This document shows positions 19,620 through 44,972 of a stretch of 64,000 nucleotides of DNA, piece after piece. The notes below the pieces were generated by a model. It saw only the letters and a program-made list of their open reading frames with translations. It was not told the DNA's origin and did no database searches. The stretch is from Amphiscolops sp. MND2022 (taxonomy: Eukaryota): contig OZ076409.1 of assembly GCA_964187785.1 (NCBI GenBank), forward strand, positions 49,168,001 through 49,232,000. The letters are read 5' to 3'. The first letter of the stretch is position 1, and the number at the start of each line of letters is the position of its first letter. The translations under genes were made by a program, and so were the position numbers.

Positions 19620-20938
19620 GGCTCACATTTGTTTCAGCACATTATAACTTGTTTTCTGAAGCGTTCTCCGAGCACGAAAGGCACCCTTACGGGGCTTCGA
19701 AACCGACTTTTTCATCAAAGACACGTCCTGAGCATATCCTAAAATATTTGCGCTTTTTGCGCCTTAGAAATAGCAAGACGTTCCCGTCTTGTTTATACTG
19801 AAGATTCTCCTTGGAACTTAAAAATTTTTCTATCTTTACCAGTAAATGAACAAAATGGCAGTGGAACGGCCCCTCTCGTGAGTATTTCTGGTTGGAGCCT
19901 AGAAGGTTCCGCTCTTATCTTTTTCCGCGCTAAGATTTCTTTTAAAGAGTCCCTGATTATATTCAATAGACTTCCACTTCTAACAACTTTCTTCGAGTTT
20001 GTTATTGGGATTTCTCAGTATTGTATTGTGAAGAGTACAAGTTGATGTTTCACCTGTGTTAGACGAAGAATGTTTTTCAATTTTTCGAGCTTTTTTCAAC
20101 CTTTCTTTTAGTCAATCTATTGTATCAGGAAATGTTCCCCACTATTACGGTCAGTAGTTTTTTGGCCAGACAACAGATTGTATGCGTAGCATCTATTTTT
20201 TGAACAGAGTTTTGTCCCAAGGATGGTTGATTTTAATTGTCTATTTTCCTTTTTTCAAAGAACTGTTCAATGGTTATCAGCAGTAGTCAGCTGAGCAGTG
20301 GTAGTTTTTTGCAAAGTACTTCCAGGTGACTGTTCTATCATTGAAATGAGTAAGAAAGACTCAATAGCTTACTCCGTGTATTATCGAAAAGGAAGTACTT
20401 TGCGTGTACGTGCGAAGAAAAGACATTGTGCGAGTGAGTGCAAGGCGGTATTTGTAAATGAGCTGTCTGTTTTGAGAAAACGTTTAGGAAACATTTATGT
20501 TAAATTTTGAAAAAGTAATAGTTAATAATACTGAATGATATTTTGTAGGCACAGTAGTATCAATTCCCCTTGCATTTGCAAATCAGTTGCTTCAGAAAAT
20601 TCAACAATTTACTTATCTACAACCGAAGTATTGTTGCCTTTACGTACTATGATATAGGGCAAATTTTTAGGGAAATTTAACTTCGACCAGGTCCTAGGAA
20701 TTTTTATTCATCTTCCGAAGTTTAAACATCAGACACAATGAATTCGTAATAATTTAAACGAAAACGTTCATTATGATGTCCCTATTCGGGTGAATTTGAA
20801 TAGCATTTATTCACACAAGGAAAATGAACTAGTGGAGTTAACATTGAAATTATACAGCATCGTGAGTTGAAATGTGGTCGGTTCAGAGTTGAGAGGCCTA
20901 ACAAACTTATGTAATGTCAATTAGAGGGATATAGTTCA

Positions 20939-22738
20939 TGTCGCAGGCTGCCGCCTGTGACGGCACGAAAATTACAACGACCTCAATCGGAAACAGCAAC
21001 AGGTACTCTCCCAATCTAATAAACTTAAACTGATAGTGAAAATTTGAACATTTTGTGTCACTTTTCCCTTCTTGCACAAATTTGTATTTGATGATGCTAC
21101 TTATTTTATTTTACTTTAATTAAGCCTTAAAGTCTGTGAAGGCTCACACTTGGAAAGATCAAAGTTGAGTGTTTTGATGTATAACAGGGCAGTTATATAC
21201 TCCAAGTAATTGAAGCTAGAATGTAAGTAAATGTACGCAGTATCGGAAACGAGTTTTCAAGTGAACGAAACTCCTATTCCGGAGACGTCACTTGAGCTCA
21301 TTATATCAACCAATCAAATCACTTCATTTGTAATACTAGTATAGTTTTCATTTAGTAATGGCCCAATAAGGCCAGTTGACTTAATATAGTTGCTTTTGTT
21401 TAGTATTTTGGTCAAATGGCCGGTTCGGGCTATTTTGTGAAAAGTAATGTAGTTATACGAATTATATTTGTGATTAACCGGTATTACTACGATTGTGCTT
21501 CTTGTGCTAAATAATCACCCTTGTGCAGTATTAGTTGCTAAATAAGCTAGATCCGAAATTAATTGACGGCTTAGGCCATTTACGTATTTTCCTCTGTTGC
21601 TAGTTTAATATCATGGATTTGGCCAATTTCGGCCGTATTATGAAAGTGCCTTTGTTCCGATCCAATTATGATGAATTGCATTGTACTGAAATGTTTCATG
21701 AGCCTATGCATGTGATATCGTGTTTTCACTCCTTAAGAATTTCAGCAATATTCGCGTGGTGGCACGTGTCATTACCGCCTTCTGATGTTGAATGCACTAA
21801 ATTCCGATGATAGCGAGTAGTATTTGTTGACACTTCGATGCTAATAGTTTACTGACGATTTGTTTGAAGTTGCGGTTTAGATTAAATACCTCTTAGAACG
21901 TTGCTTGTTGAACTTCCCGAATTATGTAAAATGTCGGGAAAACGCCATAAAAGTCATGTATCATATGATCTTATCCTTAACTAGAGAATGTAAAAAACGT
22001 GAGTGCCATCACCTCAGGAGTATATAAACAGATATCTTGCCTGAGTGGGACACTTATCAAATTTGCCTGTTCTAGTAAAGATACTTTTCCAAACGGTAAC
22101 ATTGTTAATTTTTCGGCTTAGATAATACATTATTTAACTCGGATTCTTTTCAATGCCTTGCACTAGAAAACAAAAGAAAGCTAGAAAGTCAAGAGGACTT
22201 GAAATATTCTCAGATGTCAAAAATTTCGACGTTATGTTAGGTGAGAATCACTTCAACGAGATGAGTAGAGAGGAAAGCTTAGATAGCAATTCAGCTAGAA
22301 GGCCTGAAAGTACCACTAGTAACAATCTTGGAAATGAAGAAAAGAAATCATATCTAAATCATAGAAATGTTAGTTCAGGGATCAATGCAGAGTACGGCCA
22401 AAACTCAGTTGATGCTAGCTCTCACGCTGAGATCAATAGACTGTCGAGCGAATTTAATTCCAGAATATCCAGGGAAATGGACGAGGTGATAAAAAGTGTC
22501 AGTGTTCAAATACAAAGAGCCATAAATGATGAACTTAGTAATCAGGTTTTGGCCCAGATTCGAAATGCCATTATGGCCGATTCAGGACACATGACCAGAA
22601 AAAGATGGGATGTTCCGACTGAGAGACCGGAAACAAATTCTGCAGTTCTGCGAAATGTAGGTACTAGAGATAGTTCAAAAAATGAGCACGTCCAAAATCG
22701 TCAAAACGACGATCAGACTTACCACGCTGCTTACGACA
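20939..22738 (+). repeat. 5' LTR (1800 bp)
   Basis: TG...CA with imperfect terminal inverted repeat; TATA-like GGAGTATATAAA at ~22017; aligns along its length with 42150-43947. Confidence 0.93.
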
Positions 22739-23863
22739 TGGTGACAGAAGAAAACGAATCTCCAATTGATGTTCCTGAATTTCTCACAGGACGAATACCA
22801 TCAAGAAGTCATCTCCATGGATCCCATGATGACCTCAATCAAATACTTGACACGACGATCCCAGCGCAAGAGAGGACCGTACCGGCCCCAGAACAAGATC
22901 CGATCAACAGGCTAGCTGAGGTCTTGACGAGTATGCAGAATCGCCCAACAGCCCAACAACGCACCATTCGCCCGGTCAACTTCAACACTATGACCTTTGA
23001 CGGCAAAAGTGAGAAGTTCGAGCTGTTTGAAGATCTTTTCCACCCAATGGTCAAGATGCAGCCTGAAATGTCCGAACAGATGACAATTAACCATTTTCAT
23101 TCGTTGCTGTGAAAGAATGCTCTACAAACATTCAGGAATATCAGCACGGTTAGTAGACAAACTCTTGAGGTTGTATTAGTGATCTTCAGACGCAAATACG
23201 TCAAATCTGAGTCGCAAACGACTGCCAAACACAAATGGCACCGCTTGGTCTTTGACCCCAATAGAATGAAATTACCAGACTTCCTTGAAGAATTGAACCG
23301 AGGCGCAGAAAAGGCGTTTGGAGACAACGCCCAAAAGATGATTGACAGTCTCCCAAACGCAAAACTGTCGTCGAAATTGAAACGATCAGTCAACATGGCC
23401 AGATTAGAAAATGGATCATATGACAAGATAGTTGCTCATTTAGAGAGAGAACTAGACCTTAACGGCCTTGAGGAGTCAGATGACCTACCCATGGCAACGA
23501 TGACCTCCTCATCGTCTATGCCCAAAACCCCTCTCTCCACTGGTCAAACATCACTTGCAATTATTGCAAGGACAAGGGCTATATGGTCAAGGACTGTGAC
23601 AAATTGAAAAAGAAGAAAGAAAAAGATGCCCAGCAAGGCAAAACTACTCAGAAGAAAACATATCCCAAACACGGGACTTGTGGCAAGACCAACAACCCAG
23701 AGGAACGACGTTGGCAAGGTGCCCGTGCACATCTTAAACCCAAGCGCACCAGGCCCGAGGATTCGACTGACAACGATCCCGACTCGAAAGCCTCAAAACC
23801 CCATCATAACCAACATCGTCCAACTCCCAGTCTTCATCCAAGGAAGATGATATTAAAAACTAG
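22153..23863 (+). pseudogene. gag: gag, starting inside the LTR; disrupted by stops/frameshifts
   Basis: ORFs 22153-23112, 23179-23607 and 23583-. FDGKSEKFELFEDLF capsid-like motif; degenerate zinc knuckles CNYCKDKGHMVKDC and TCGKTNNPEE; ends DDIKN* at 23863. Confidence 0.85.
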
Positions 23864-26800
23864 CTTCGCGACAACTCCAATACGATCATTTCGTCTCTGT
23901 CTGACAATACATCAAATCGGACCCTCCTACAAAAACTTTTCAAAACTATAAACAACAATTGATGGGCTATCCCTCTGTTGTCTGGCAGCAACAGATGGAA
24001 AAATCTATCATCACTACCTATAATAATACCCACCTTTACCAAAAACCAATTCCTGCTTGTGATCCTGATTATAAGACAACCTTCACTACCCGATTCAGGC
24101 CCATTCCCTTGATTGATGACTACAATCCATCGTATATTGACCCAGACTATGGCATAGACCCCTTTTGGGACTTTGAGCTCTATAACCAGGACCTATTACA
24201 ATTCCAATATTTCCTAGACGACATTGAGCACTATAAAACAACAGTCCACGAAAATCCTCCAATAACCCATAACATAAAAACAAGTGGTGATCGAAAATTG
24301 GCAGATGAATGATGGAACCAATCATCCAGTGTTCCCAAACACCTGGGGATCGAGAATTCCGAAAACAAAGATGAATCGATTCCAAAATCACTACTAGACG
24401 AGAAACAATTCCAAAACGTCCTCATTACCAAAGAGGGTGAACCAGACTCTATACCGCTGTCAACCAATATAAACCTCAAATGCAAGAAGCGTATGTTGTT
24501 TTTCCCAATGGGTTTTGGGGAATTGACCATAAATGGCCTAATAGACACTGGGGCATTATCCAGTGCCCTTCCTGAAGTGGACTTTCGGAAAATTCGACTC
24601 CTTTCGGCACAATCTGTTATCCGGGAAGGTCAGCCTCCGAACATTCAAATCATGGTCGCAAATGGGCAATTAGAAACTCCTAAAAGTACTATAGAGCTCA
24701 AATTTCAGGTTGGTGACATTGAGTTTCATGAAATCTTCATAGTAATGGAGAACTTAACGGGACCAATCATTGGACTGTTTTTCCTCCAGAGAAATCATAC
24801 AGTTTTGGATATGAGGCGAGGAAATTTGAATTTCCGTTCTTCTCGATGCTGCTCAAAACAGCTGATCACCGATACTCCAATGTCTTGGAGCCAATCCTCA
24901 ACCCGACTGAAATCACCATTCCACTAAATGACAGAGTCCTGTTCAGGACAAATTCTTTACTCTACCCTGAGAACACTGTCACTGGCATACTGCAACCAAG
25001 TGATCTGCTAAACAAAGAAGGCGACATTACCTTTTGCCCAGCTTTGGTGACTCTGAACGATGACAAAATATCGATTCCTGTGAACAACTTCACAGTTGAC
25101 CCCTACAAACTCAAGAAAGGACTCCATATTGCCAGTTTCTCTGTCGTGACGCCAGAACAAATGAAGTACGTCGAACCGGTTGGTCCGGTATCGACCTGGC
25201 ATCTCTTACAAAATGACTAAGAGCAGGCAGCCCATTATGTCAGCAGTCTCATCAAGACCAATAAAATTCCACAGAATAGAGAAAAATATTGGTTCCCAAA
25301 TCCGGAAAACCCAGGTAACACGGAGGAGCACACGCCAATCTAGAAACGAAGACAACAAAAACTACAGGCCCAACAGGACCTGGAGACTCTAGACCCGACT
25401 AAAGATGAAGAATCTAGGGAAAATTCCCAGGAAATTTTGATTGGAAGGATTCCGTTTCAACTGCGGACGAAAGAGCAAAAATTGAAGAACTATTAGTGGA
25501 ATTCCATGATAATTTCTCCAGACACGTATTTGATATAGGCATGAATGAAGAATTCAAGGTAAAACTAACGCCCAAGGATGATTCCCCAGCCTATAGCCAG
25601 AGCCTCCCAGGACCAATAAACCTAAAGAAGGACATCCTAGTCGAACTAGCTATGTTGCATAAATATGGATTCATCACTTCTCTACCATTCTCGAAGTACG
25701 CTAGTCCGATATTTGCTGAAAAGAAGCCAAATGGAAAACTGCGACTCCTGGTTGACCTGAGAAAAATCAACAACCTAAATTCGGATGATTACATAAACAA
25801 TAATCACCCTGTCGGTACCCTAGTTGATGCCGCCCAGCACATAGCAGGCAATAAGCTTTTTTGTAAATTAGACTGTTCATAAGAGTATCACTGCCTCCAG
25901 ATGGCCGACCAACGGTCAATTGAAATGTTAACCTTCAATTTTGCAAGTCGCACATTTGCCTACAGACGTTTGGCACAAGGCCTCAGTCGGGCGCTATCCC
26001 CGTTCTTCAGTTTCATGCAATACCTTGATAAAATTATCAAAGCGGACCGGTGTGCCCAGTACGTGGACGATATTGGCATCGCAGCCAACGACGCTGATCA
26101 TCTCATCGCTAACCTTAGAGCAACATTTCAATGCATTCAGGAAGCAGTCTTAAATTGACAATGCACAAATGCCATTTCGGTGCTAGAGAGATTGATTTCC
26201 TAGGACGAACAATTACCCCACAAGGTGTTAAACCGCAGAGGCACATTGTTCAAAACTTTTTTGAAAAAACCAAATTTCCGAAGTCAAAAAAGGCCTTACA
26301 AAGATGTTTGGGATTCTTGAACTACTACAAAAACTACGTCCCAAGACTTTCTGAACGCCTTGCGCCATTCTACAAGTTGCTGAAGAGTGACGAAAAGGTC
26401 CTAATATCGAAGGAATTGGTTCAACAATTTGAGGAAATCAACCGAGCATTAGACAATTGTTGCGACTTGGCCCTACAACAACCGATTCTGAACAAACAAA
26501 TCGCACTGAAGACAAATGCTAGTTTTGGGGCTGCTGGATACGCAGTGCTAATCGATGTTGACCCAAGTCAGAAATTCACTTCAATCCGCAAATCCTATGC
26601 TCGATACCGACATTATGCAAGCAACCAAGAACGAATTGTAGTCAAGGAAGAGATCCTGACCAGGCACTACTTCGACGAAACAGGGAATGTAAAATACCAT
26701 CAAATTCTACTCCCGCAGCACTTGCTTCAGGAACTGCTTCAGTCTTTTCACGGGACTGCTCTTAAGCACCCTGGCATATTAAAGATGTTACAGAAGATCA

Positions 26801-29472
26801 GGCAGAGGTATTACTACCCTAGCATGGCAAAGTATGTTTAAAAAGTGGGTAGAAGGGTGCGAACAATGCGCCAGGGACAAACACGTCCCCAATGCAACGA
26901 TCACGCCTGAACTACGCAACTTGCCGGAATGGGACCTTTTTGCAAGTCGCACATTTGCCTACAGACGTTTGGCACAAGGCCTCAGTCGGGCGCTATCCCC
27001 GTTCTTCAGTTTCATGCAATACCTTGATAAAATTATCAAAGCGGACCGGTGTGCCCAGTACGTGGACGATATTGGCATCGCAGCCAACGACGCTGATCAT
27101 CTCATCGCTAACCTTAGAGCAACATTTCAATGCATTCAGGAAGCAGTCTTAAATTGACAATGCACAAATGCCATTTCGGTGCTAGAGAGATTGATTTCCT
27201 AGGACGAACAATTACCCCACAAGGTGTTAAACCGCAGAGGCACATTGTTCAAAACTTTTTTGAAAAAACCAAATTTCCGAAGTCAAAAAAGGCCTTACAA
27301 AGATGTTTGGGATTCTTGAACTACTACAAAAACTACGTCCCAAGACTTTCTGAACGCCTTGCGCCATTCTACAAGTTGCTGAAGAGTGACGAAAAGGTCC
27401 TAATATCGAAGGAATTGGTTCAACAATTTGAGGAAATCAACCGAGCATTAGACAATTGTTGCGACTTGGCCCTACAACAACCGATTCTGAACAAACAAAT
27501 CGCACTGAAGACAAATGCTAGTTTTGGGGCTGCTGGATACGCAGTGCTAATCGATGTTGACCCAAGTCAGAAATTCACTTCAATCCGCAAATCCTATGCT
27601 CGATACCGACATTATGCAAGCAACCAAGAACGAATTGTAGTCAAGGAAGAGATCCTGACCAGGCACTACTTCGACGAAACAGGGAATGTAAAATACCATC
27701 AAATTCTACTCCCGCAGCACTTGCTTCAGGAACTGCTTCAGTCTTTTCACGGGACTGCTCTTAAGCACCCTGGCATATTAAAGATGTTACAGAAGATCAG
27801 GCAGAGGTATTACTACCCTAGCATGGCAAAGTATGTTTAAAAAGTGGGTAGAAGGGTGCGAACAATGCGCCAGGGACAAACACGTCCCCAATGCAACGAT
27901 CACGCCTGAACTACGCAACTTGCCGGAATGGGACCTTTTTGCAAGTCGCACATTTGCCTACAGACGTTTGGCACAAGGCCTCAGTCGGGCGCTATCCCCG
28001 TTCTAAAGTTGCATGGACCCGAAGACGCCATGCAGATTGACCTTTTGCCGAACCTTCCCCCTAGTTGAGGATATGAAAATGTCCCTAACTGCAATTGATG
28101 TCTTCGCTCGATATCTGTTCGCTTATCTTCTTACGGACGCTTCAGCAATCAATATAGCAAGAGTGCACATTCATATAATGACGAAACATGCGTATTTACC
28201 AACAACACTCATTACTGACAAAGGAACTGCATTCACTTCTACGATTATTGCGGAGATTACGCAAATTTTGGGAATCACACTCACATGTGCAATAACTCAA
28301 CATCCGCAAACAATCGGGAAATTGGAACAAACACATGCTTCACTGAAGACGAATCTAAAAATGGCATGTGGGGAAAATCGCCGACAATGGCATAAATACT
28401 TGCCATTAGCAGTTCTCAATCACAATACGAGCTATCACGCAAGCACCGGTTGTGAACCAACAAGAGTATTCCATGGACGAGTTCCAGACGATATCTTGGA
28501 TCACAAACTCGGAAATAATCCAAACGAGCAGATCACTCCCACAACTGAATTCGCGGAAGAAATCCAGAACCGGACAAAACTTTTGATTGACAAGACAAAG
28601 CAGAATATCATGCAATACTACATTGAATACAAGGAATATTTTGACCGCAAAGAAAAAGCGGCACCGCTCAAAGAAAACGATTACTGTTTTGTACTACAGT
28701 CAAAAGCGGGTCACCAAGGATCAAAGATCCCATTCAGATATTATCATTGGAATGGACCATTTGTAGTCCAGAAAATTTTACCTAATGAGAATTACATCAT
28801 CCGCAGACTCAATACAAATAAAACTCAGATCTTGCACCGAATTTGCCTTAAAAAGTTTGTTCCCAATCAACCACTTGAGGACAATTTCCGAGATGAACGC
28901 TTGCAACCAGACACAAAAATTTTCATTCCGCAAGACGACTTATATGAAATAACGCGGAAACAAACATCGGTGACCAGCTAGCTACACGAGGCAATGAGCC
29001 TATTCCGACTAGCTTACCGAATGGCGTACAGCCGGTTAGGACAGAAACGAATTCAAGTGACACACACGAGAATGAAGCGGATTACATAATCACGACTGAC
29101 AGTCCGAATGCCGTCAGCGACGCAGCTCAAAATCAAATTGAAAGAGTGAAAAGTGACGTCAGTAATAGAAATGAAGCTATCAAAGCTGTTAGAAATGAAA
29201 ACTCTGATTGGCCAGATTCGGCCGTTCACCACAAAGATCAAGACAAATCTTTGCCGGATCTGTCCGAAAGTCAGAACAACGATGCAAATTTTTCAGAAAG
29301 AAACTCTGCTAACAAAAACGATGCACAAAACTCTCCAAAAAAGGGGGATGATATTATCGTGCCCGAAACATTGCAAAAAGATAATAAAAACGAAAGTCTG
29401 AGCCCTAGAGGAGGGAAATACAATCTTAGGCCTAACCCCAACCCAAACTCCTTAGAAGATTTCAGATACTAA
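23860..29472 (+). pseudogene. pol: pol (protease, RT, mostly deleted RNase H, integrase), with a 999-bp internal tandem duplication
   Basis: LIDTGA protease, KKPNGKLRLLVDLRKIN, KLDCS, QYVDDI, IDFLG, LGFLNYY, H..KHPG..C..C integrase zinc finger, ITDKGTAFTS, HPQTIGKLE, W.GPF, terminal YNLRPNP. Confidence 0.92.
25939..28004 (+). repeat. 999-bp tandem duplication (2 full copies plus ~68 bp of a third)
   Basis: ORFs 26131-26841 and 27130-27840 are identical 236-aa translations; junction GAATGGGACC|TTTTTGCAAGTCGC. Confidence 0.95.
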
Positions 29473-31177
29473 AAGATTGAATTTACCCAAAAACGGGCAT
29501 TCTTCGTTTTCTGTTATCTTTTCTTTTCAGTCCCTTTTTTCTTCGCAGTTTTAGAATAAATACTGGGGCAATACAACAAAGATCCCTTACAAGCAAATAA
29601 ATACGGGATCAAGAGTGACAGAAACTAACAAAGGTACATGAATAATTACAGGAAAGTGCAGAGAATTAAACAAAGTGTACAAAAGCACTGTGTACATAGA
29701 TACAAATGTACACTTAGTTTTTAGAGTGTCCTGCAACGGATTCGTCAACTACTGAGGAAGTTCTCGAGCCTGAAGAAGCTCATTTCATTTTCCTCCGCTT
29801 CCTATCACTGGGAGTTCGGACAGCAGGAGTGTCGCTTATGGTGAATACATCTTGATAAGGTGGGATGTTGGCCCTATCCAGTGACTCAGATACAGCGGAA
29901 CGATAGGCAGATACCTTAGACTGGTAAATTTTACCTCTTCCAAAGCCATCGACATATGTCCAAGGGTCATATGTGGGAGAGAAGGACAATTGACCCAAAG
30001 AGGCAGACAGGAGAGAGAAGCTATTTAGATTAGTTTTATTGCTGCAAAAGGCAACGGAACCAGGGACGGACGAGAGGTAACTCTGACATGGCAGGACAAC
30101 ATCAGTGAATCTGCTCTGATGTCCTAAAGTGCTGATTGACCCCATCGTAACTGCGGGATAACTAGGACTAATGGAGGTGGCACACAGGCAACATAGTTTG
30201 GATAAATGAAGCAAATGCTGCATAAACTCCCGATTGATGAGGAAATCAATCAGAATCCTGAAGCATTTTCAACTCAAACCCTACAAACTTCAGAACCCAG
30301 GCACAGATCAAGATCAGAGTGATTTAGTTACTCACCCTAGTCCGTACGCCTTGCCCTTGCTGTTGTGGAGCATGAAGCGTTAAGTATGCTATCACCGATT
30401 TCCACTCCTCAATGAGTTCTTGGCAGATTGTGGGTAAAGTCTGCAAATCCAGTCTGCAGCTGGTTACTGCCTAAAAGGAAAGTCCCGAATTCGCCATGTT
30501 TTAGGAGAGTTAACCTTAATCTTGTCCTAAGCATTCTTTACTAGCATAAAAGTAGGGTTTACTTACTTGAATGAGTTCAGGGCTTCCTTGCATCCAATCC
30601 TCTGTGAGCGATCCTCCTAGAGAAATCACAAAGCCCCTCAGCACAGAGAAAAAGTCGATGTGTCCAAAGACACTGTAGCTGGTCTTATGCATCAAACGCG
30701 GCAGGTCCAGTTGTTCGAAGCGAAAGCAGCTTTGGACAGAGCGGGTAAAGCTTGGCATCTCATCGATTGTGCGGACGAAGTCGACTGGACACCCGGAACA
30801 GGCCACTTTATCAGCTTTAGTCGAGGGCACAGACAGCAGTCGAGCAAGGGACCCCAACTCTCCAGTTAACTCAGTAGAGGGCATTCCACTGCGGCAAACC
30901 AGGACTCGGCATAGCTCCGAAATCTTCCAAAAGCGCAGGGACATGATTCTGCTGGCCCCCTCGTCCTCAAATTCAAGTCCGAAACACTGTTCTGTGGCAA
31001 CATGCTCAGCGATGTCGCTCATCGCGCAATTGAATATGTGCTGGAATATGGCTTGAAATGGAAACAAAATGTTAAGGACCTTATTAGATGACTGTTACGA
31101 ACTTTGTTCAATCGCTACTTTGGCTATTTTGGGTGTTTTTTGCTAATCTCCTGCTAGGACTGTTTTCCGAACTCTAG

Positions 31178-34100
31178 TTGACATCTTGATGAAGATATGA
31201 TTGTTTTGAACAATGTATTTGAATTGTAAATTTTGAGCTTTGCGTTTTACGAAGGTAGATATTCAATCAAAATGGAGAACAAAACTGAAACGCAGGTTAA
31301 ACAACAAATTGAATTGAATAATTTTACAGGTACAAGCAATAATACCCTCCTAGCATCATCTGTTCATACTCGCGTACTTTAATTTCCATCGAGATATTAG
31401 TCACTTCCTGTAATTTTGCGTCAAAATTTTGATCTGCGTTCGTCAATTTTCAAGACACAGCAATTCTAATCTAGTATTAGTCATCAACCATGATCATATC
31501 ATTTCATTCCGGTGTCCTTTTGTTTCCTCCCAAGCAGAAAGTAGTTATTACTTCAGTCTGTCAAACCGGAAATTTCCCCGTTTTACTGCTTTGGTTCGTA
31601 AGAAACCGACGCGTATATGACGCTGACGTGAACAACTAATACCTGATTTTGAATTTTTACTTGAAAAAAATATGACTAATTATCTTGATTTAGACAATTT
31701 GGTGATGCTAAAAGAGTGACTGATTTACATGAGGTTAATCAATTATATATTTCAACATTTAACATTTATTTATCTGAATAAAGTTAAGAGGAACACCTTT
31801 GAGCAGCAATATAAGACGACTTGACATCGTCAAACAGTCAATGAATTTATAAAATTAGGTAATCAAAGCATACATTTAACACGCCTGCTTAGACTGCACT
31901 TTATTAACACAAACTGAAGATAAACTGTGACTCTCCAATTTAAAAAGCGTTAAAACACTGGTATTTTAAGTTAGTCTGAAAAATCCTGGCTTAAATACCA
32001 TATTCCGTTCCAATTCAATCTTAGTCGACGCAATACAGACGTAGAAAAAAGTTTTCTCAACTTCTAGTATATTAGTTGACGTAGCGTTGACGTAGATTCA
32101 AAATTTGGCTTGGTTAGTTAAATTGTGACGTAGTGTTGACGTTGATTCATATTCTAGCTTCGACTAGATTTACCGTAGTAAAGTAAGGCTTCTTTTAAAT
32201 TCAATACTGACTTAAACGCCTAATTTCATAAATTTGGGACGTAGTGTGGACGTAACTTTGGTATTAGACTTAGTCCGCAATTATAGTGGCCGTAGCGTGG
32301 ACGTAAATTTGGTATATTGGACGGATTAAACCAGCTATTTTGATGGAAAATACTCAATTACGTCTAATTTCATTATCTTGTCAACGTCATGTTGACGCGT
32401 TTTCTTGGCAGAATTTAAGCTTCATAAACTTGTCAACGTCATGTTGACGAGTTTTCTTGGCAGAAATGAGATTTTGACTAGTTTGACGTGATGCTGACGA
32501 GTATTTAGAAATAGACTTTAGCTAGTTAGCTGCCAGCGCTGTGACGTCACATTGGCGGAAAATTGGAATGTTTTCTAATAAACTATTAGTATAGGAGGAT
32601 AATCGGAATGATTTTCTGGTATGCGTAGACAAGGCTGTGACGTAGCGTAGTCGCGACGCAAATTCAATCGTTTTGGCGAAGCGGTGACGTAAATTAGTTT
32701 TAGTTTGCTTTTAATTCAATCCAGTCCGGGCGCGGACTGTGACAGGGCCACTGTCATGGGAAGAAGAGTTCCCGTGGGCATGATAAAATACAAGAGAGGA
32801 TAGTGTGATTTGTATACTTTCAAGACGACTGTTTCTGTACTAGGAAAAAAATTTCCATTCAGATTTGGAGAAAATTTTTCTCTTCACTTGTTTGTTTATC
32901 AATCTCCAGCTTTTCTTTAATCATAATTGTTGACGTAACTTCATTCTTTTTGCGGCAGCTAATTTTAATGATATGTTTCCGTTGTACTTTGCAGGAAAAT
33001 TATTAAAATGTAGTCGCTATGTATGAGCGGAAATGTGTGAAGATAAGTTCGTTATGACTTAGGCTATAAAATCATTCATAATTTAATTTAAATTTTGATG
33101 CTCTTAACTGGTCACAGTTTATTTCAGCTTAATAAAAGCGTCTAACTGTTTTCATAATGCATCCATGACAACGGACAAAACGGCACCTTTTGGCAAGCAC
33201 AATCCAGGCCGGGAGCGGACTGTGACAGGGCCACTGTCATGGGATAAAACACTCTCGTGTTGTTGAATCGTGGTCGAGGTGGACATAGCAGCTCGTGCCC
33301 ATTTGAGTCTGTTACTTTCTCTCTAGCCGTTGATAGACTGACTTATTTCACTGGCTCATTCAGATCATTCAGCCAATTTTTCCTGTGAGGATCCCACTTA
33401 CGTAGACGACCAACGGTAGAGGGTTTTTTTGAGGTTTTAATGAGGTCACTTTTACGTCACTTTATAGAGGGTTGTTTTAACCCTGTTTTTTCCCAATGAC
33501 AACAATCTTGCGTCCTTTTATACTGGGTTGTTATAACCCGGTCATTTGCGACGTCAACTTTGCGTCGTCTTTGTAAATGGGCTGTTATATTGACATCTTG
33601 ATGAAGATATGATTTTTTTGAACAATGTATTTGAATTGTAAATTTTGAGCTTTGCGTTTTACGAAGGTAGATATTCAATCAAAATGGAGAACAAAACTGA
33701 AACGCAGGTTAAACAACAAATTGAATTGTATAATTTTACAGGTACAAGCAATAATACCCTCCTAGCATCATCTGTTCATACTCGCGTACTTTAATTTCCA
33801 TCGAGATATTAGTCACTTCCTGTAATTTTGCGTCAAAATTTTGATCTGCGTTCGTCAATTTTCAAGACACGGCAATTCTAATCTAGTATTAGTCATCAAC
33901 CATGATCATATCATTTCATTCCGGTGTCCTTTTGTTTCCTCCCAAGCAGGAAGTAGTTATTACTTCAGTCTGTCAAACCGGAAATTTCCCCGTTTTACTG
34001 CTTTGGTTCGTAAGAAACCGACGCGTATATGACGCTGACGTGAACAACTAATACCTGATTTTGAATTTTTACTTGAAGAAAAATATGACTAATTATCTTG

Positions 34101-36001
34101 ATTTAGACAATTTGGTGATGCTAAAAGAGTGACATTTTACATGAGGTTATTCAATTATATATTTCAACATTTAACAATTATTTATCTGAATAAAGTTAAG
34201 AGGAACACCTTTGAGCAGCAATATAAGACGACTTGACATCGTCAAACAGTCAATGAATTTATAAAATTAGGTAATCAAAGCATACATTTAACACGCCTGC
34301 TTAGACTGCACTTTATTAACACAAACTGAAGATAAACTGTGACTCTCCAATTTAAAAAGCGTTAAAACACTGGTATTTTAAGTTAGTCTGAAAAATCCTG
34401 GCCTAAATACCATATTCCGTTCCAATTCAATCTTAGTCGACGCAATACTGACGTAGAAAAAAGTTTTCTCAACTTCTAGTATATTAGTTGACGTAGCGTT
34501 GACGTAGATTCAAAATTTGGCTTGGTTAGTTAAATTGTGACGTAGTGTTGACGTTGATTCATATTCTAGCTTCGACTAGATTTACCGTAGTAAAGTAAGG
34601 CTTCTTTTAAATTCAATACTGACTTAAACGCCTAATTTCATAAATTTGGGACGTAGTGTGGACGTAACTTTGGTATTAGACTTAGTCCGCAATTATAGTG
34701 GCCGTAGCATGGACGTAAATTTGGTATTTTGGACGGATTAAAACAGCTATTTTGATGGAAAATACTCAATTACGTCTAATTTCATTATCTTGTCATCGTC
34801 ATGTTGACGCGTTTTCTTGGCAGAATTTAAGCTTCATAAACTTGTCAACGTCATGTTGACGAGTTTTCTTGGCAGAAATGAGATTTTGACTAGTTTGACG
34901 TGATGCTGACGAGTATTTAGAAATAGACTTTAGCTAGTTAGCTGCCAGCGCTGTGACGTCACATTGGCGGAAAATTGGAATGTTTTCTAGTAAACTATTA
35001 GTATAGGCGGATAATCGGAATGATTTTCTGGTATGCGTAGACAAGGCTGTGACGTAGCGTAGTCGCGACGCAAATTCAATCGTTTTGGCGAAGCGGTGAC
35101 GTAAATTAGTTTTAGTTTGCTTTTAATTCAATCCAGTCCGGGCGCGGACTGTGACAGGGCCACTGTCATGGGAAGAAGAGTTCCCGTGGGCATGATAAAA
35201 TACAAGAGAGGATAGTGTGATTTGTATACTTTCAAGACGACTGTTTCTGTACTAGGAAAAAAATTTCCATTCAGATTTGGAGAAAATTTTTCTCTTCACT
35301 TGTTTGTTTATCAATCTCCAGCTTTTCTTTAATCATAATTGTTGACGTAACTTCATTCTTTTTGCGGCAGCTAATTTTAATGATATGTTTCCGTTGTACT
35401 TTGCAGGAAAATTATTAAAATGTAGTCGCTATTTATGAGCGGAAATGTGTGAAGATAAGTTCGTTATGACTTAGGCTATAAAATCATTCATAATTTAATT
35501 TAAATTTTGATGCTCTTAACTGGTCACAATTTATTTCAGCTTAATAAAAGCGTCTAACTGTTTTCATAATGCATCCATGACAACGGACAAAACGGCACCT
35601 TTTGGCAAGCACAATCCAGGCCGGGAGCGGACTGTGACAGGGCCACTGTCATGGGATAAAACACTCTCGTGTTGTTGAATCGTGGTCGAGGTGGACATAG
35701 CAGCTCGTGCCCATTTGAGTCTGTTACTTTCTCTCTAGCCGTTGATAGACTGACTTATTTCACTGGCTCATTCAGATCATTCAGCCAATTTTTCCTGTGA
35801 GGGTCCCACTTACGTAGACGACCAACGGTAGAGGGTTTTTTTTGAGGTTTTAATGAGGTCACTTTTACGTCACTTTATAGAGGGTTGTTTTAACCCTGTT
35901 TTTTCCCAATGACAACAATCTTGCGTCCTTTTATACTGGGTTGTTATAACCCGGTCATTTGCGACGTCAACTTTGCGTCGTCTTTGTAAATGGGCTGTTA
36001 T
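31178..36001. repeat. 2412-bp tandem duplication of LTR plus adjacent internal sequence
   Basis: 31178-33589 is nearly identical to 33590-36001 (e.g. ORFs 31429 and 33841). Confidence 0.92.
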
Positions 36002-36177
36002 AACCCGGTCATTTGCGACGTCAATCTTGCGTCGTCTTTGTAAATGGGCTGTTATAACCGGGTCATTTGCGACGTCAATCTTGCGTAGTCTTTGTATATG
36101 GGCTGTTATAACCCGGTCATTTGCGACGTCATTCTTGCGTCGTCTTTGTATATGGGCTGTTATAACCCGGTCATTTT
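35916..36177. repeat. 54-bp minisatellite, about 5 copies
   Basis: GTTATAACC(C/G)GGTCATTT recurs at 35943, 35997, 36051, 36105 and 36159. Confidence 0.92.
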
Positions 36178-39100
36178 CAGATCCTTATGGTCTTAAAAGA
36201 TCATGATCTGCAAAGTGATAATTAGACTCATTTTTGTTCTCTGAGGGAGATGTGCGTATTAGTGACGCCGACGCGCCGGTTATTCGACAACCCTTAGGTT
36301 TGTAACATTCCCCGTTCCATTAAGCTTTTGTGAATCATACGAAACTGCAGATAGGCCTTTTCTTCTTTTGTATGTTCATAGCTTAGATTTTCTGACTAGT
36401 CGATTCGGGAATGTGTGCTTCAGAGACTACGTCATTGTCATCTTTCGAACGCACGTCTCAGCCTCAGGGAGAGTCTACTTTTTTTAACTTACCGATGTAA
36501 CACCCCAGAGAGTATGCTGCCGATTTTGGAATCACGTGTTGTGGTAATTGATGTCCTCGGCGAGTGTTAGACTGCATCTGACGATGAGCTGACGGGGTGG
36601 TTGTTGTTGGTGGAGTCGTCGAATTCTAACTCGTTTATCATCAGTAGGTCAACAAGTCTTCATTTGCCGTTTGGGTTGCGTTGCTCAACTTATCAAGTTT
36701 GCGGGTTTGGAGAATGGGAGGGTAGTGATTATCGTGTATTTTTGCATAGACTCAAGAGCGACTGTGAGGTCTTCTATGACATTGATGGGTACGGCTAGAC
36801 TTTGGGTGTAGACAGAGCTGTTGTTCTTTTTGGTTATTTTCACTTTGAAACGGATGTTGATTCCAATGTCGAGTCGGTGTCTCGTAAACATGTCATTGTA
36901 CTCAATTATGATTGTTTTGAACAATGTATTTGAATTGTAAATTTTGATTTGATTGATTCAATATTCAATCAAAATTGAGAACAAAACTGAAACGCAGGTT
37001 AAACAACAAATTGAATTGAATAATTTTACAGGTACAAGCTATAATACCCTCCTAGCATCATCTGTTCATACTCGCGTACTTTAATTTCCATCGAGATATT
37101 AGTCACTTCCTGTAATTTTGCGGCAAAATTTTGATCTGCGTTAGCAGTTCGTCAATTTTCAAGACACGGCAATTCTAACCTAGTATTAGTCATCAACCAT
37201 GATCATATCATTTCATTCCGGTGTCCTTTTGTTTCCTCCCAAGCAGGAATAGTTATTACTTCAGTCTGTCAAACCGGAAATTTCCCCGTTTTACTGCTTT
37301 GGTTCGTAAGAAACCGACGCGTATATGACGCTGACGTGAACAACTAATACCTGATTTTGAATTTTTACTTGAAGAAAAATATGACTAATTATCTTGATTT
37401 AGACAATTTGGTGATGCTAAAAGAGTGACTGATTTACATGAGGTTAAACAATTATATATTTCAACATTTAACATTTATTTATCTGAATAAAGTTAAGAGG
37501 AACACCTTTGAGCAGCAATATAAGACGACTTGACATCGTCAAACAGCCAATGAATTTATAAAATTAGGTAATCAAAGCATACATTTAAAACGCCTGCTTA
37601 GAGTGCTGAAGATAAACTGTGACTCTCCAATTTAAATAGCGTTAAAACACTGTTATTTTAAGTTAGTCTGAAAAATCCTGGCCTAAATACCATATGCCGT
37701 TGCAATTCAATCTTAGTCGACGCAATGCTGACGTAGAAATGTGTTTTCTCAACTTCTAGTAAATTAGTTGACGTAGCGTTGTCGTAGATTTAAAATTTGG
37801 CTTGGTTAGTTAAATTGTGACGTAGTGTTGCCGTTGATTCATATTCTAGCTTCGATTAGATTTACCGTAGTAAAATAAGGCTTCTTTTAAATTCAATACT
37901 GACTAAAACGCCTAATTTCATAACTTTGGGCCGTAGCGTGGACGTAAATTTGGTATTTTGGACGGATAAAAACAGCTATTTTGATGGAAAATACTCAATT
38001 ACGTCTAATTTCATTAACTTGTCAACGTCATGTTGACGCGTTTTCTTGGCAGAATTTAAGCTTCATAAACTTGTCAACGTCATGTTGACGAGTTTTCTTG
38101 GCAGAAATGAGATTTTGACTAGTTTGACGTGATGCTGACGAGTATTTAGAATTAGACTTAGCTAGTTAGCTGCCAGCCCTGTGACGTCACATTGGCGGAA
38201 AATTGGAATGTTTTCTAGTAAACTATTAGTATAGGCGGATAATCGGAATGATTTTCTGGTATGCGTAGACAAGGCTGTGACGTAGCGTAGTCGCGACGCA
38301 AATTCAATCGTTTTGGCGAAGCGGTGACGTAAATTAGTTTTAGTTTGCTTTTAATTCAATCCAGTCCGGGCGCGGACTGTGACATTGACTTGAACGAAAG
38401 TTTCAGTTGGGAACATACTTACAGACATCCGTTCTTCACCCCAGTCGAAACCACAAAGAGCAAACTGGTGATCGGTGAAGGAACTGATCCGTGCCCATTT
38501 GTTACGGAGTATGGACAAGTCTCCTTGAGTCTGAAGCAAATCCGAGACGATGCTTAGTTTGGTGCGGGCTCGTGACTCAGGCGAGATGAGGGGGAGGGGG
38601 GTTGTTCGGCCTCTGACGAAGTTGTCGTAGAAGGGGAAACGCTCACCCAAATCTACTAATTCAACATTGATTGAATTTGGTAATTCATTTGCCAGCTCTA
38701 TTTTCGTCAGCAGCTTTCCGTTTCGGCCTCAAACTTGGTGTTGTATCTTCCCAGTCACCGGGTCAACACTCCTGAGGTGTTCATACCTCCATCGCTGGCA
38801 CGTCTCAGGTGTTTCTCACTGCGGTGATGCCCAAGCATTTCGAAGTGGCCCTTGGTCTTGATCGAAAAATTCCTCTTACCCACATGACACCAAACCATGT
38901 GTGGGTTGTTTACTGGGTCCGCAGGTCCAGAAATGAAGGACCTTGTCCATCCAATCTTTGCGAAGAACTCATCGCGCACTGGAACTCCACGCTGCTGTTG
39001 TCGCTTGGATCGAACTGGTTTTTTGGACTTACTCCTCCTCTTAGATGTAGAGTCCAGCACTTGTTCCCTCACTTCAGAGAGGGTTATGTCTTGGCTGCTG

Positions 39101-41449
39101 GGATCCGTCTCTAGGGTTTTTTCCTCAACTTGCCCGGGAGAGGTCCCAGGACTAGGGCGCTGGTGAGAGTCATCCTTGGGTCCTGTCTTCAATGCGGCAG
39201 TGATCAAGGCCATTTCTCGGGCGCTGTCGCTCTCTCCAAATGAGGAAGAGACGCCTACTTCCCCAAGATCTGTTGAGTCTGCGCCATGCGTGTCTACATT
39301 TGAATCGCCTCCACCTTCTACATCGCTAGAGTCACTGGAGAGTTCTCTAAAAGGGGTGGAAGCCCTAGCTCTATTGTAGAAGTGTGCTGTCCAGGATGGA
39401 GCTCTAGCAGCCTTGCCCCTCACTGCATCGAGGATCATTCTTTCTCTCCATTGTTACGTAGGACATTCGGAGAGTTTCATCTGTTAGGACCCGCAATAGG
39501 TGGTATACTTGTGGCTCGGTAAAAGCCACTGTGGAATGTCCTGGGGGCAGTTTGATAGCTCGGGCCTCGTCAAAATGGGTCTCAGGAATTTCCCTGGCTC
39601 TTTCTGACAATTCGGGGAGGTTGTCTTTCATCCCTCTGGAAGTTGTGGCAAAGTAACACTGGTGAGAGGGACTAGCAACTTGCGCGGTTGATTCATCCCC
39701 AGCCTCAGTTCCTGACTCCGACGTGTTGGGAATGTTGCCGTATAATTGAAGATATCCAGTGTTGCTTGCCTCCTCAACAGTTTTTTCGCTTTCACTCAGA
39801 TCGGTGAGGAAACGTACCTTCGGGTCATTACTCGGCAGAGCAGGGACTTCATACTTAGACGAGCCATTATCATCATCAGTTTGGGCTGCCAGCGCAGGTG
39901 TCCCTACAGGATTATGGCTTGATGCAGGTAGAAGTTCTGGCAATTGTAATGCTGAAGTGTCAACACTTTGTAAACCAGATTCTAAGGCAGCTAAACTGGT
40001 ACTTGCCGCCACTCGTCTGTCGTTGGAATAGGGGTACTTGACCGCAACATCACTAATGGCAGAAGGCATTGACTGGCCACTTCTTTGGTTTGGATTTCTG
40101 ATCCCGCTTCAGCAGCGAGGGCAACTAGTTCCACATTGGAGGAAAACCCATCAGACTCCATACTTTGAATTTTCTCTTCAGCATACGCGTTGATGTCCTG
40201 TTCACTATCAGCACTATCAGTTGAGGAGGCCAGCAACAGTCTGTGGATCACGAAAGGTCGTGTCCGCGGAAACAGGTGGAGAGGCTACTGGTGGTCTTGT
40301 TGCTGCGTCGTTCTCGGGAATTTGGCTCTCTAAATGAAAAGAAATGAAACTTGGCGGTAAGCTCCCTCGAAATGAATCCACTTGCCGCATTAGAAATCTT
40401 CTGGAAGTGACTCTTGAATTTGAAATACGTGTTTTCATACGTTCAAAGATGGAAAAAGGAAGCGCTTTATGAACAAAAGTTAGCTCTGATCAAGTTAAAC
40501 TAGTTCAAAATATGAAACGTGAACCAACCTGAGTTAGAAGACAATCTATTGCTGTGACGTGATCTTCCAGGAAACAGTCCTCAGTTGGATGATCAAAAAT
40601 TGATGGTGTTTGGGACGTTGGCCGAAATGGGCAAGGAATGGATAAGACCTGGGGAATCCAGGAAGGGATGTGGTTGACAACAAGAGTTGGAGGCAAAGGA
40701 AGATGGAAGTGGGTGAAGAAATCCAGACAATGAAGAATACAAATATAACAGATACAAATTGTAAAAGGAATTGAAATGGAATAACAATCAAGAAGATTGA
40801 AAGTTGGAGTTCGTGGCTGAAGACTTTACCAGACTGATATTATATGGCTATTTACATATTTAAAGTGTACATGGAGTCTGCCAGCGAAATGTACAGGAGA
40901 TTCTTCACTAAATACAACATTATTAGTTAGGAGCCGATTATGGCCGTTTACTCTATTTCGTTTTGCCGTTTTGTTCCGTTATCTTTATCATTTTAGCTAG
41001 AGTTCCACCACTTTGAATTATTTAGAATTATTTTTTCGCCATTTTATCATTCATTTTCATTTCATCGAAGCTCATCTCTGATTGGCTTAAGCCATTTTGG
41101 AAGAAACCTAACGGCGCGTGTCGTTAGTTACACCCAAGCACGCTGCTAATTACCCACTTGATATGGAGATATTTGTTGTTAACAACTCAAAGACTCTTCT
41201 CTCGTCCATTTGAAAAGGTGAGAAAGGGGGTTGCATTCAAGAATTCAAGGACTTGTTACCGCTGGAAAATTCCATTCAGAAATGTTTATGCCGAATTATG
41301 ACAATTTACCGACAACCTAACCGCCAAATACGACTTGCCGGGAAACGGCCCGACTCAGCTTGTTTCAAAAAAATAGATGAAATCAGTCTACTCAATATTT
41401 TTGTCAAAGTCAGCTGCCTTCTGACAAAGCCAAATTGCTAAGAAACTGA

Positions 41450-42238
41450 TAATGCAGAATTTTATCCTATCGAGGAAACTCTTCGATTTCGAAGAGCAGA
41501 GCTGAGAAGACTCGGCAGAGTCTGTCATCTACATCTCAAGCGATGAGGAAGATGAAGATACAGACTTCTATGACTCGGACTGGACATCGGACACCGAAGC
41601 ATTGATCAGCAGGATCGAGAGAGGTCAAATCTAGCCCAATTTTTTTTTGCTGGACGCGCCATGACCACAGAGAGGCTAGATGACGAGATGGAAGCAGCCC
41701 CCAGTAGCTCGCAACCGGTTACGCCAACTACCCCCAAGTTAGGATTTAAATATTTTGACGAAAAACTCTTCTACGCGCCTTCCCGGAAAATAGAAAAGGC
41801 AAAAATTGAGCTCTGCAACACAAGTCTACCAGTTTTGGAGTCACCCATGTCACCCCCCGAACATGAAAGGGGGCCTTCGCTGGACACCCCTATGCCGCAA
41901 TCGACGGTCGATATTTTGCACGCATCCTACCATTAACAGAGTGTACAGCCTTATGCCGACCTTAGCAACCAAAGGTGCCACAGTCGTATGGTATGTGGCA
42001 AATCTGTCGACGAGACAATCAAGAAAAAATAGACTGGTATATTGAGAGGTCTACACCCTGGAGCGAACCTGCCTACATAACAGCCCTGAGACGGGAAGCG
42101 TATACAAACGGTCTTAATGCAGGTAGTTTGCTTTTTCTGGCACCCGCTGTGTCGCAGGCTGCCGCCTGTGACGGCACGAAGAATATAACGACCTTGATTG
42201 GACAGGAGACAGCGACAGGTACTCTCCCTATTTCTTAA
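41450..42238 (+). pseudogene. Sense accessory ORF ('ORF3') of the Gypsy element, ending inside the 3' LTR
   Basis: Fragments VIYISSDEEDEDTDFYDSDW (41520-41585), 41661-41936 and 41975-42238 join through stops/frameshifts. The last ~29 codons come from the LTR. Confidence 0.55.
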
Positions 42239-43947
42239 ACTTAAACTGATAGTGAAAACTTGAACCTTTTGTGTCAATTTTCCATTTTTGCACAATTTTG
42301 TTTTTGATGATGCTACTTATTTTCTTTTACTTTATAAGAATTAGTCTGTTAAGGCTCACAATTGGAAAGATCCAAGTTGAATGTTTTGATGTATAACAGT
42401 GCGATTATATACTCAAAGTAATTGAAGCTAAAATGTAAGTAAATGTACGCTGTATCGGAAACGAGTTCAATTGAACGAAACTCCTATTCCGGAGACGTCA
42501 CTTGAGCTCATTATATAAACCAATCAAATCACTTCATTTGTAATACTAGTATAGCTTTCAATTAGTAATGGCCGAACAAGGCCAGTTGACTTAATATAGG
42601 TGCTTTTGTTTAGTACTTTGATCAAATGGCCGGTTCGGGCTATTTTGTGAAAAGTAATGTTGTTATACCAATTATTTTTGTAATTAACCGGTATTACTAT
42701 GATTTTGCTTCTTGTCCTTAATAATCACCCTTGTGCAGTATTAGTTGCTGAATAAGCTAGATCCGAAATTATTTGACAGCTTAGGCCATTTACCTATTTT
42801 CCTCTGCTGCTAGTTTAATATCATGGATTTGGCCAATTTCGGCCGTATTATGAAAGTGCCTTTGTTCCTATCCAATTATGATGAATTGCATTGTACTGAA
42901 ATGTTTCATGAGCCTATGCATGTGATATCGTGTTTTCTCTCCTTAGTAAACTCAGCAATATTCGCGTGGTGCACGTGTCATTACCGCCTTCTGATGTTGA
43001 CTGCACTAAATTCCGATGATAGCGAGTAGTATTTGTTGACACTTCGATGCTAATAATTTTTTGATGATTTGTTTGAAGTTGCTTTTTAGATTAAATACCT
43101 CTTAGAACGTTGCTTGTTGAACTTCCCGAATTATGTAAACTGTCGGGAAAACGCCATAAAAGTCATGTATCATATGATCTTATCCTTAACTAGAGAATGT
43201 AAAAAACGTGAGTGTCATCCCCTCAGGAGTATATATACAGATATCTTGCCTGAGTGGGACACTTATCAAGTTTGCCTGTTCTAGTAAAGATACTTTTCCA
43301 AACGGTAACTTTGTTAATTTTTCGGCTTAGATAATACATTATTTAACTCGGATTCTTCTCAATGCCTTGTACTAGAAAACAAAAGAAAGCTAGAAAATCA
43401 AGAGGACATGAAATCCTCTCAGATATCGAAAATTTCGACGTTATGTTAGGTGAGAATCACTTCAACGAGAAGAGTAGAGAGGAAATCTTAGATAGCAATT
43501 CAGCTAGAAGGCCTGAAAGTACCACTAGTAACAATCTTGGAAATGAAGAAGAGAAATCATATCTAAATCATAGAAATGTTAGTTGAGGGATCAATGCCGA
43601 GTACGGCCAAAACTTAGTTGATGCTAGCTCTCACGCTGAGATCAATAGACTGTCGAGCGAATTTAATTCCAGAATATTCAGGGAAATGGACGAGGTGATG
43701 AACAGTGTCAGTGTTCAAATACAAAGAGCCATAAATGATGAAATTAGTAATCAGGTTTTGGCCCAGATTCGAAATGCCATTATGGCCGGTTCAGGACACA
43801 TGACCAGAAGAGGATGGGACGTTCCGACTGAGAGACCGGAAACAAATTCTGAAGTTCTGCGAAATGTAGGTACTAGAGATAATTCAAGAAGTGAGCACGT
43901 CCAAAACCGTCAAAATGACGATCAGACTTACCACACTGCTTACGACA
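42150..43947 (+). repeat. 3' LTR (1798 bp), containing a copy of the gag N-terminus (43362-)
   Basis: Matches the 5' LTR; followed by TSD GTTCA. Confidence 0.93.
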
Positions 43948-44739
43948 GTTCAATATCGTTGATTGAAAATATTCTAAGTTGAAATTTTATCAACCGCAGA
44001 TTGAATTCAGCGGGAAACAATCGAAGTCAAAAATTCATCAACCGGAGAGTATTATAAGCAGGTGACATGCAATTTAAGATCTAGCCACCAACGGAAATAA
44101 ATTTAAGATATCAATGCATTGTAATGAAATAGTTTATAGCATACCCCAAGTCCTTGTAAAGCAGTTCTGGGCAGATATCGACTGCCAACAACATTTAGAC
44201 CCTCTTCTGACATTAATTTTGTGTGGAAGCAAAACCCGACTTTTGTTCGCCTCAATGCTGAAAACGACAAATTTAAAATCGTGAAATTTCAACTCGTTTC
44301 GTTCACTACTTCGCTTCCACGATAATTTTTTGTATAAACGAGCAGTTATTTTCAGTGAGTGTTGCAGAAAAGTGGCATCGGTTCGATTAGTTTGTGTCCA
44401 AAGTTTCAGAGCAAGGTGCTACAAATCAGTGGCTGAGAACAAATTGAGTTACTATAGTTTGTTTTTAACTCCGCTTAGAGCTTAACGGAGTTCTGACCTG
44501 CAATGTATCGTTCGCAGATACAAAAGGTCGAATGTGGCTCCATTGCCCTCAGCCTATAAAGCTGGCTGTTCTCAATATTTGAAAATTTTTGTTTGAAAAT
44601 TAAAAAATATATAAATTTAAAAAATTATGATTCCAGGCTGACCATACTCTGAACCATATATGATTCCAGGCCGATCATACTCTGGATCATATATAATACC
44701 AGGCCGATCATACTCTGGTTCATATATCATATATGGTTA

Positions 44740-44972
44740 CCCGGGTTTCCCGACCAGGCCGATCATAATCTGACCATATTATGGCACCATAAAAATCATA
44801 CAAATTTCCTTACTTAGATCTTGCTATGATCGGCCTGGAATCATCATGAGTGCAGGCTGCACTCATGATGATTCCAGGCCGATCATAGCAAGATCTAAGT
44901 AAGGAAATTTGTATGATTTTTATGGTGCCATAATATGGTCAGATTATGATCGGCCTGGTCGGGAAACCCGGG
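44740..44972. mobile_element. Perfect fold-back MITE with TTA TSD (PIF/Harbinger-like)
   Basis: 116-bp arms are exact reverse complements around a single G at 44856; TTA at 44737-44739 and 44973-44975. Confidence 0.85.

Follow-up and report, generated by a model that had tools for sequence, protein, structure and literature searches.

Background

The locus raises a simple question: how can an LTR retrotransposon hold an intron-bearing gene on the strand opposite to its own genes, and what would this gene be for? In the sections of a review available to us, the origin and role of antisense accessory ORFs of LTR elements are stated to be open (PMC7264820). The window (i.e., the whole stretch of 64,000 nucleotides that was analysed, C1:49168001-49232000) had been read, in a preliminary description, as carrying such a gene, with a hAT-transposase-like product, in the interval from pol to the 3' LTR. 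The comparisons below use sister copies from the scanned genome of 1.07 Gb.

Results

The host element

Judged from its sequence, the host is a Ty3/gypsy LTR retrotransposon; the claim that the locus is an LTR retrotransposon is borne out by the LTR pair (20939-22738 and 42150-43947, 93.7% identity) and by the 5-bp TSD GTTCA. Its parts in the window are as follows.

20939-43947, + strand: LTR retrotransposon, with paired LTRs and a 5-bp TSD
20934..20938 (left copy) and 43948-43952 (right copy), + strand: TSD GTTCA, 5 bp
20939..22738, + strand: 5' LTR, TGT...ACA ends, 1.8 kb; holds the first ~200 gag codons
22129..23804, + strand: gag, disrupted by stops and frameshifts
22739..22750, + strand: PBS-like site, begins TGG, abuts the 5' LTR and lies within the gag frame
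23857..29473, + strand: pol (protease, RT, RNase H, integrase order), disrupted
42150..43947, + strand: 3' LTR

Gag starts about 600 nt within the LTR (window 22129-22750 and 43338-43947), and on the gag of an open sister Pfam reports DUF1759 and zf-CCHC, both below cut-off. On the window itself Pfam finds protease and then integrase, which is the gypsy order; in an open pol of 1,738 codons, the YVDD motif of RT and an RNase H can be read between the two. No tRNA was matched to the PBS-like site, and ahead of the 3' LTR there is no clear purine run that could be taken for a polypurine tract. A 5-bp TSD was read in 10 of the 16 sister elements, the other six being cut off, ambiguous or mismatched.

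The pol of the window includes a 1-kb tandem duplication (25939-27016/26938-28015). Exact tandem duplications of 1-3 kb occur in several elements (window 25939-28015 and 58206-64000; L126, L127-L128, L129) and are either real or assembly artefacts. Elsewhere in the window, a gag-like fragment (49093-49488, + strand) is 32% identical to the gag N-terminus of the host element family; a palindrome at 44736-44976, with 120-nt arms that are 99% complementary and 1 nt between them, adjoins a 33-bp array (44626-44731); and dispersed non-coding repeats with A-rich and GGGACCC-type units lie in both orientations (7883-8485, 9436-10038, 10873-11247, 16413-16956, 18650-19618, 51260-51794, 55620-56387), forming a MITE- or Helitron-like family.

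Structure of the antisense gene

The antisense gene has six exons (16, ~1,890, 486, 135, 82 and 1,163 nt) and five GT-AG introns. The window retains the following parts.

40529..40544, - strand: exon 1, 16 nt long, with a mutated start codon in this copy
40330..40528, - strand: intron 1, 199 nt
38423..40329, - strand: exon 2, encoding a long acidic Ser-rich N-terminal region, a conserved helical block of ~65 aa and then a C2H2 finger (~38880-38800); three frameshifts in this copy
31053..38422, - strand: intron 2, 73 nt, split by the nested element, acceptor mutated
31093-38384, - strand: nested non-autonomous LTR-type element, 7,292 bp, TG...CA ends, 5-bp TSD with one mismatch
30567..31052, - strand: exon 3, 162 codons, open
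30471..30566, - strand: intron 3, 96 nt
30336..30470, - strand: exon 4, 45 codons, open
30252..30335, - strand: intron 4, 5' part, ends at a deletion of ~786 bp
29714..30254, - strand: what is left of exon 6, encoding a basic tail that resembles an NLS; early stop near 29778, stop codon of the family at 29716-29714

The preliminary description had glimpsed four of the five introns in part; it mentioned neither a second start, nor ORF X (see below), nor the exchange of the gene between elements. Its 73-nt intron with the donor at 38422 is real, with the acceptor at 31053: once the nested element of 7,292 bp and one copy of its TSD are taken out, 33 and 40 nt remain, which gives 73. The odd CAA that it noted at this acceptor is a mutation of the window copy, since four close sisters have a 73-nt intron that ends with CAG. 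The 96-nt intron at 30566-30471 and the open exon of 45 codons after it hold up as described, and the acceptor suggested at 40330 does exist and closes the 199-nt intron 1, which follows the 16-nt exon 1 (40544-40529). As to the third intron proposed there, the donor at 30335 is correct while the acceptor at 30258 is wrong: in the closest sisters this intron has 112 nt, and the TTCAG differs in the nearest sister. We can dismiss a cryptic third intron that shifts the frame; the offset of one base results from the deletion of ~786 bp.

Splice signals are kept across the family. Canonical dinucleotides occupy 306 of 330 positions in 33 aligned loci (L033, with its large insertion, was excluded), three degraded copies accounting for 14 of the 24 misses, and 147 of 150 positions in 15 annotated elements; column identity is 0.95 at splice dinucleotides vs 0.63 in intron interiors. 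The signals thus are not due to chance. Reading from ATG to stop gives 1,256-1,278 aa in 9 of 16 elements, where one unannotated element and one distant copy with a mis-called exon 5 were scored as not intact. One exact degenerate pattern for an intron-less exon 4/5 junction had no match in the genome. We believe that this is almost certainly a real spliced coding gene on the antisense strand.

The gene likely has two starts. Exon 1 is 16 nt long and has ATG in 15/15 annotated elements; in the same 15 a second in-frame ATG stands 52 nt ahead of the intron 1 acceptor, the peptide motif that follows from it is present in 77 of 119 database proteins, and there pN (0.15) is lower than pS (0.37). 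In the window the second start (40381, within the last 52 nt of intron 1 and behind a conserved block) is mutated. The block itself (window 40330-40440) is kept even in the most distant types and includes, ~25 nt ahead of the second start, a nearly palindromic motif; the block is possibly an internal promoter.

The window copy of the gene is broken. Mutations have hit its two start codons and the acceptor of intron 2, the frame of exon 2 is shifted at three places, and the nested element sits in intron 2. The deletion of ~786 bp, which starts inside intron 4, took the true acceptor of that intron, all of the 82-nt exon 5 and of intron 5, and ~200 exon 6 codons; at 30253 the sisters (34 loci) carry sequence that the window lacks, ~790 bp in most of them. 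The nested element is absent from 34/34 sister loci and includes three repeat copies of ~1.5 kb, a tandem duplication of 2,412 bp, a 54-bp array and an RT remnant (36564-36918). A diverged piece of it (about 80% identical) is found just beyond the host element, at 46352-46710.

A profile search of protein databases returned 723 representatives at 50% clustering; among the 150 listed, most start or finish at exon borders of the antisense gene, and many may be decayed copies. The distant relatives P0220, P0300 and P0321 are without intron 2 and keep the position of intron 3; the best matches of P0321 in this genome are 28-37% identical. In one cassette type (L055, L058-L063, L080) intron 2 is expanded to 222-249 nt (~73 otherwise), and its two splice sites are intact.

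Copy number, context and selection

The gene is a fixed component of the family. A DNA search gave 61 matches from 40 scored of 837 candidates, and in all 34 fetched loci the region is present in the stretch from pol to the 3' LTR, the nested 7.3-kb insert being absent; a one-off insertion of the antisense gene is thereby ruled out. A search with exon 6 gave at least 107 scored matches (63-100% identity, from 7,683 candidates). The exact finger motif is present at 2,423 sites in the genome and the pol-end motif at 3,911, the reversed controls giving 0; among 100 pol ends listed, 54 had no match to the finger motif. Of the 58 finger matches over the initial 28.5 Mb of C1, 46 are on the strand opposite to a pol end and 2.7-3.0 kb from it, with 0.8 expected, and none of the 58 is in a sense-oriented copy. 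The integrase adjoins the gene in the opposite orientation in all 16 elements read over 20 kb (picked as young, open or divergent, i.e., not a random sample), also in two that have a gene of only 30-50% identity; no stand-alone copy outside LTR elements was seen in these 16 full contexts, and no inverted repeat of at least 40 nt was found to flank the gene.

The substitution pattern indicates purifying selection at the protein level: dN/dS between cassette types is 0.04-0.06, or else synonymous sites are saturated (pS 0.77-0.83, pN 0.18-0.26), and exon lengths preserve multiples of three. Column identity at codon positions 1, 2 and 3 is 0.85, 0.90 and 0.64 in the 33 aligned loci. Between two copies of one cassette type dN/dS is 0.95. 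An alternative is that the antisense RNA itself matters, as self-limiting double-stranded RNA, the protein being incidental; multi-exonic non-coding antisense transcripts of Arabidopsis Copia elements, reported in the part of 10.1101/2024.04.02.587720 available to us, speak for it. We find this very improbable in view of the low dN/dS and the preserved exon lengths, and of the gene end, which lies ~210-260 nt from pol and so stops before it.

The protein could also tether or target integration, through chromatin and the integrase complex, instead of controlling transcription. A predicted DNA-binding finger and a basic tail would fit this, and no chromodomain was called on the integrase ORFs of the window, which is a broken copy. 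On the other hand, the ten TSDs read have no common sequence, the copies lie on many contigs and on both strands, and the protein would come from a separate opposite-strand transcript and not from the Pol polyprotein; we therefore consider targeting unlikely.

Exchange of the gene between elements

Upstream of the antisense gene, and head to head with it, lies a second accessory ORF, here called ORF X.

40545..41270, no strand: interval that separates ORF X from the antisense gene; putative promoter region
41272..42232, + strand: ORF X, extends into the 3' LTR, broken in the window copy

In sisters ORF X encodes ~260-290 aa with an acidic stretch and Cx2C (also L070:5465-6427, + strand), without a match to any Pfam family. 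It is 50-98% identical among close elements and follows the LTR type, not the cassette type.

The whole gene is very probably exchanged as a cassette among near-identical elements. Comparison of the C8:4.9 Mb element with that at C2:32.1 Mb, by segments of 400 nt, gives an identity of 86-99% outside the gene (mostly at least 94%) and of 49-70% inside, the drop extending from the stop codon to ~200 nt upstream of exon 1, i.e., ending within the interval between the antisense gene and ORF X; for the same pair, pS is 0.127 in pol vs 0.807 in the cassette. The opposite pattern appears against C3:26.0 Mb, where the gene is 85-94% identical and ORF X together with the upstream two-thirds of the LTR 45-65%. 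Four elements whose ORF X is 95-98% identical group in a single clade (100/100), but their cassettes belong to four clades. The tree of gag-pol has little depth, and most of its branches lack resolution.

Pol itself is mosaic, so recombination is general in the family; the exchange is remarkable for how deeply the cassette types have diverged and for a block as large as the gene. Template switching is a known part of retroelement biology. Short conserved blocks are present at both cassette ends, and switching at them between co-packaged RNAs would place old, diverged cassettes onto young backbones.

Is the product of hAT descent?

The answer is plausibly yes, with a slight lean in favour. In hAT transposons, which have TIRs and an 8-bp TSD, the transposase is laid out as a finger, a strand-rich block, a long helical region and a Cys-Ala-Thr-Ser-like block. 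The zinc finger claimed earlier is confirmed: the Cx2C...H-x5-H ligands are kept in 29, 27, 37 and 33 of 38 rows (gaps included). Exon 3 is predicted to form a helix, three strands, a helix and a strand, which is the order in the first half of the RNase H fold. The description of the product as hAT-like keeps two points in its favour. The Atlas features lean to hAT, below the Atlas reliability marks (recognition 1826 vs 2300; shared features 117-133 vs 170), and the strand-rich block has a weak structural match to Hermes 151-264 in the expected register, from a model with pLDDT 42 and with unrelated folds ranked above Hermes.

Sequence profiles do not follow. None of the 113 exon-6 proteins matches a Pfam hAT family at E<=1, nor do the other exon ORFs; the dimerisation domain PF05699 (Dimer_Tnp_hAT) is found in 0/113 at the same threshold, and Pfam gives no match to zf-BED either, though the finger ligands are conserved. 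Against 20 native hAT ORFs hhalign gives a probability of at most 0.45%, and the C-terminal profile comparison to native hAT scores 13.3, no better than the 10-22 of 30 reversed or shuffled controls; the templates were mostly Ac/hobo-like, with one of DUF4371 type. The motif read earlier as LSKL is in part a change specific to the window copy, Phe standing in place of its Ser in 110 of 113 relatives. An Atlas query with the finger and exon 3 gave no usable match, exon 6 found no homologue among longer proteins, the DUF4371 family search had no match (nor did its controls), PDB sequence searches with three profiles yielded nothing credible, and metagenome contigs contained no relative of the finger region or of the native DUF4371-type hAT. 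Uninterrupted Ac/hobo-like hAT ORFs of 496-697 codons occur in the genome (L105-L110), some with several equal-scoring matches.

The negative profile tests would also suit a captured host gene, or another origin outside hAT, with the same gene structure and selection and a merely convergent motif likeness; five introns with stable phases are host-like, and the long intact native hAT ORFs examined are uninterrupted. This possibility is taken seriously but is doubtful. No host-type relative was found, the matches listed in three database searches looking like exon pieces of the antisense-gene family; the order of finger, strand-rich, long helical and Cys-Ala-Thr-Ser-like parts fits the hAT layout; both the Atlas and the Hermes leads point toward hAT; and the templates of the negative profile tests were mostly Ac/hobo-like, just one being of DUF4371 type.

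If the product descends from a hAT-type transposase, its catalytic triad would be lost. The Hermes triad is D180, D248 and E572; in the register proposed from the usual hAT motifs, an invariant Glu stands where the first catalytic Asp is expected and the other two places have no acid. A still active nuclease or recombinase with an unusual active site, which may drive the cassette exchange, could be supposed because of the invariant acids (the first predicted strand ends with a Glu in 29/29 ungapped rows, and an Asp of exon 6 is present in 112/113) and of breakpoints that recur at the gene ends. We regard it as improbable: stand-alone and sense copies number 0/16 contexts and 0/58 matches, in that register no acid takes the place of the second Asp or of the last Glu, and the conserved end blocks account for the exchange by template switching.

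Discussion

The best overall explanation that we can propose is a Ty3/gypsy family with a reversed cellular-style gene, encoding a regulator of hAT descent and subject to cassette exchange; as a whole, it could prove right or wrong with equal chance. A promoter of its own, situated between exon 1 and ORF X, would drive transcription of the gene, and the transcript would be spliced. The packaged genomic RNA would be the opposite strand, and the introns would for this reason survive, passing through reverse transcription. The product of ~1,256 aa would enter the nucleus, bind DNA via its C2H2 (BED-like) finger and in trans keep the elements transcribed, as an activator or by anti-silencing. The case for a nuclear regulator of the element's own expression is evenly balanced. 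Near-identical LTRs are paired with very different cassettes, so any target of the protein is not type-matched in the LTR. A further reading, that an LTR lineage captured a whole intron-bearing hAT gene, switched its catalysis off and now shuffles many old, diverged types (to about 30% identity) among near-identical gag-pol backbones, each type having its own specificity for DNA or host factors in the contest with silencing, is tentative and rather unlikely to hold in full.

The observation matters for several reasons. A complete gene, introns included, can stay in an LTR element until its synonymous sites are saturated. Old cassettes on young backbones are natural pairs that differ almost only in the antisense gene, so its role is testable by comparing expression, small RNAs and chromatin. 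Should the hAT ancestry be true, we would have here a clear instance in which a retrotransposon, and not a host, domesticated a DNA transposase; should the type-specific reading be true, a class II enzyme would now serve a class I element as an exchangeable cassette that sets specificity.

Comparison with known systems

Catalytically dead hAT-derived proteins are known (FAM200/GTF2IRD2-like). Our product resembles hAT, and Hermes in particular, in the N-terminal C2H2 finger followed by a strand-rich block and in its Atlas neighbours; it differs in that no profile match is significant, the triad is unrecognisable, and the gene is carried in an LTR element with 5-bp TSDs. Among the papers listed in literature searches, no title or abstract opening describes this element or a hAT-derived multi-intron gene in an LTR element; PMC12477816, in the part available, deals with DNA transposons.

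The VANC proteins, as far as the available parts of PMC13317346 and PMC13547354 describe them, are anti-silencing factors of VANDAL DNA transposons that bind short motifs in related elements. By analogy, both systems have a transposon-borne accessory gene, diverged types and, as proposed here, a similar role; however, VANC genes belong to DNA transposons, whereas here the carrier is an LTR element, in which a repeated target motif was not found (no 10-mer occurs more than four times in six elements), so that VANC-like motif arrays are ruled out at this level. According to the accessible part of PMC5408684, the ORF3 of bdelloid LTR retrotransposons is env-, GDSL- or DEDDy-like, and such extra ORFs were gained repeatedly and are common to several retroelements. 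These too are accessory ORFs acquired by an LTR retroelement, but, in that part of the paper, they are expressed from spliced element messages, and here we have an opposite-strand gene with internal introns. The spliced antisense transcripts of Arabidopsis Copia elements are non-coding in the part of 10.1101/2024.04.02.587720 cited above.

The closest likeness is to the plant gypsy elements Tat/Retand, Grande and RIRE2, which also have an antisense gene between pol and the 3' LTR in most family copies. From the parts of the papers available, Retand, Grande and RIRE2 carry antisense ORFs after pol, with TRP28 in 97% of Retand clusters (PMC11963269); gene23 of Grande has its own promoter and a nuclear product, with origin and function called unknown (PMC7264820); and the plant mobile domain (PMD) that Tat ORFs encode shows a relationship to Mutator DNA transposons (PMC4408406), a precedent for a DNA-transposon link. 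Pfam finds neither TRP28 nor PMD here. Our gene has five conserved introns, while the word "intron" is absent from the accessible part of the Retand paper (PMC11963269), and the review calls for a search for spliced antisense transcripts (PMC7264820, in part); whole-gene exchange among backbones, as seen here, was not met in the available parts of PMC11963269, PMC7264820 and PMC4408406. Antisense accessory ORFs in LTR elements are known mainly from plants, and the present one adds a gene of five introns and about 1,250 codons in more than 2,000 copies.
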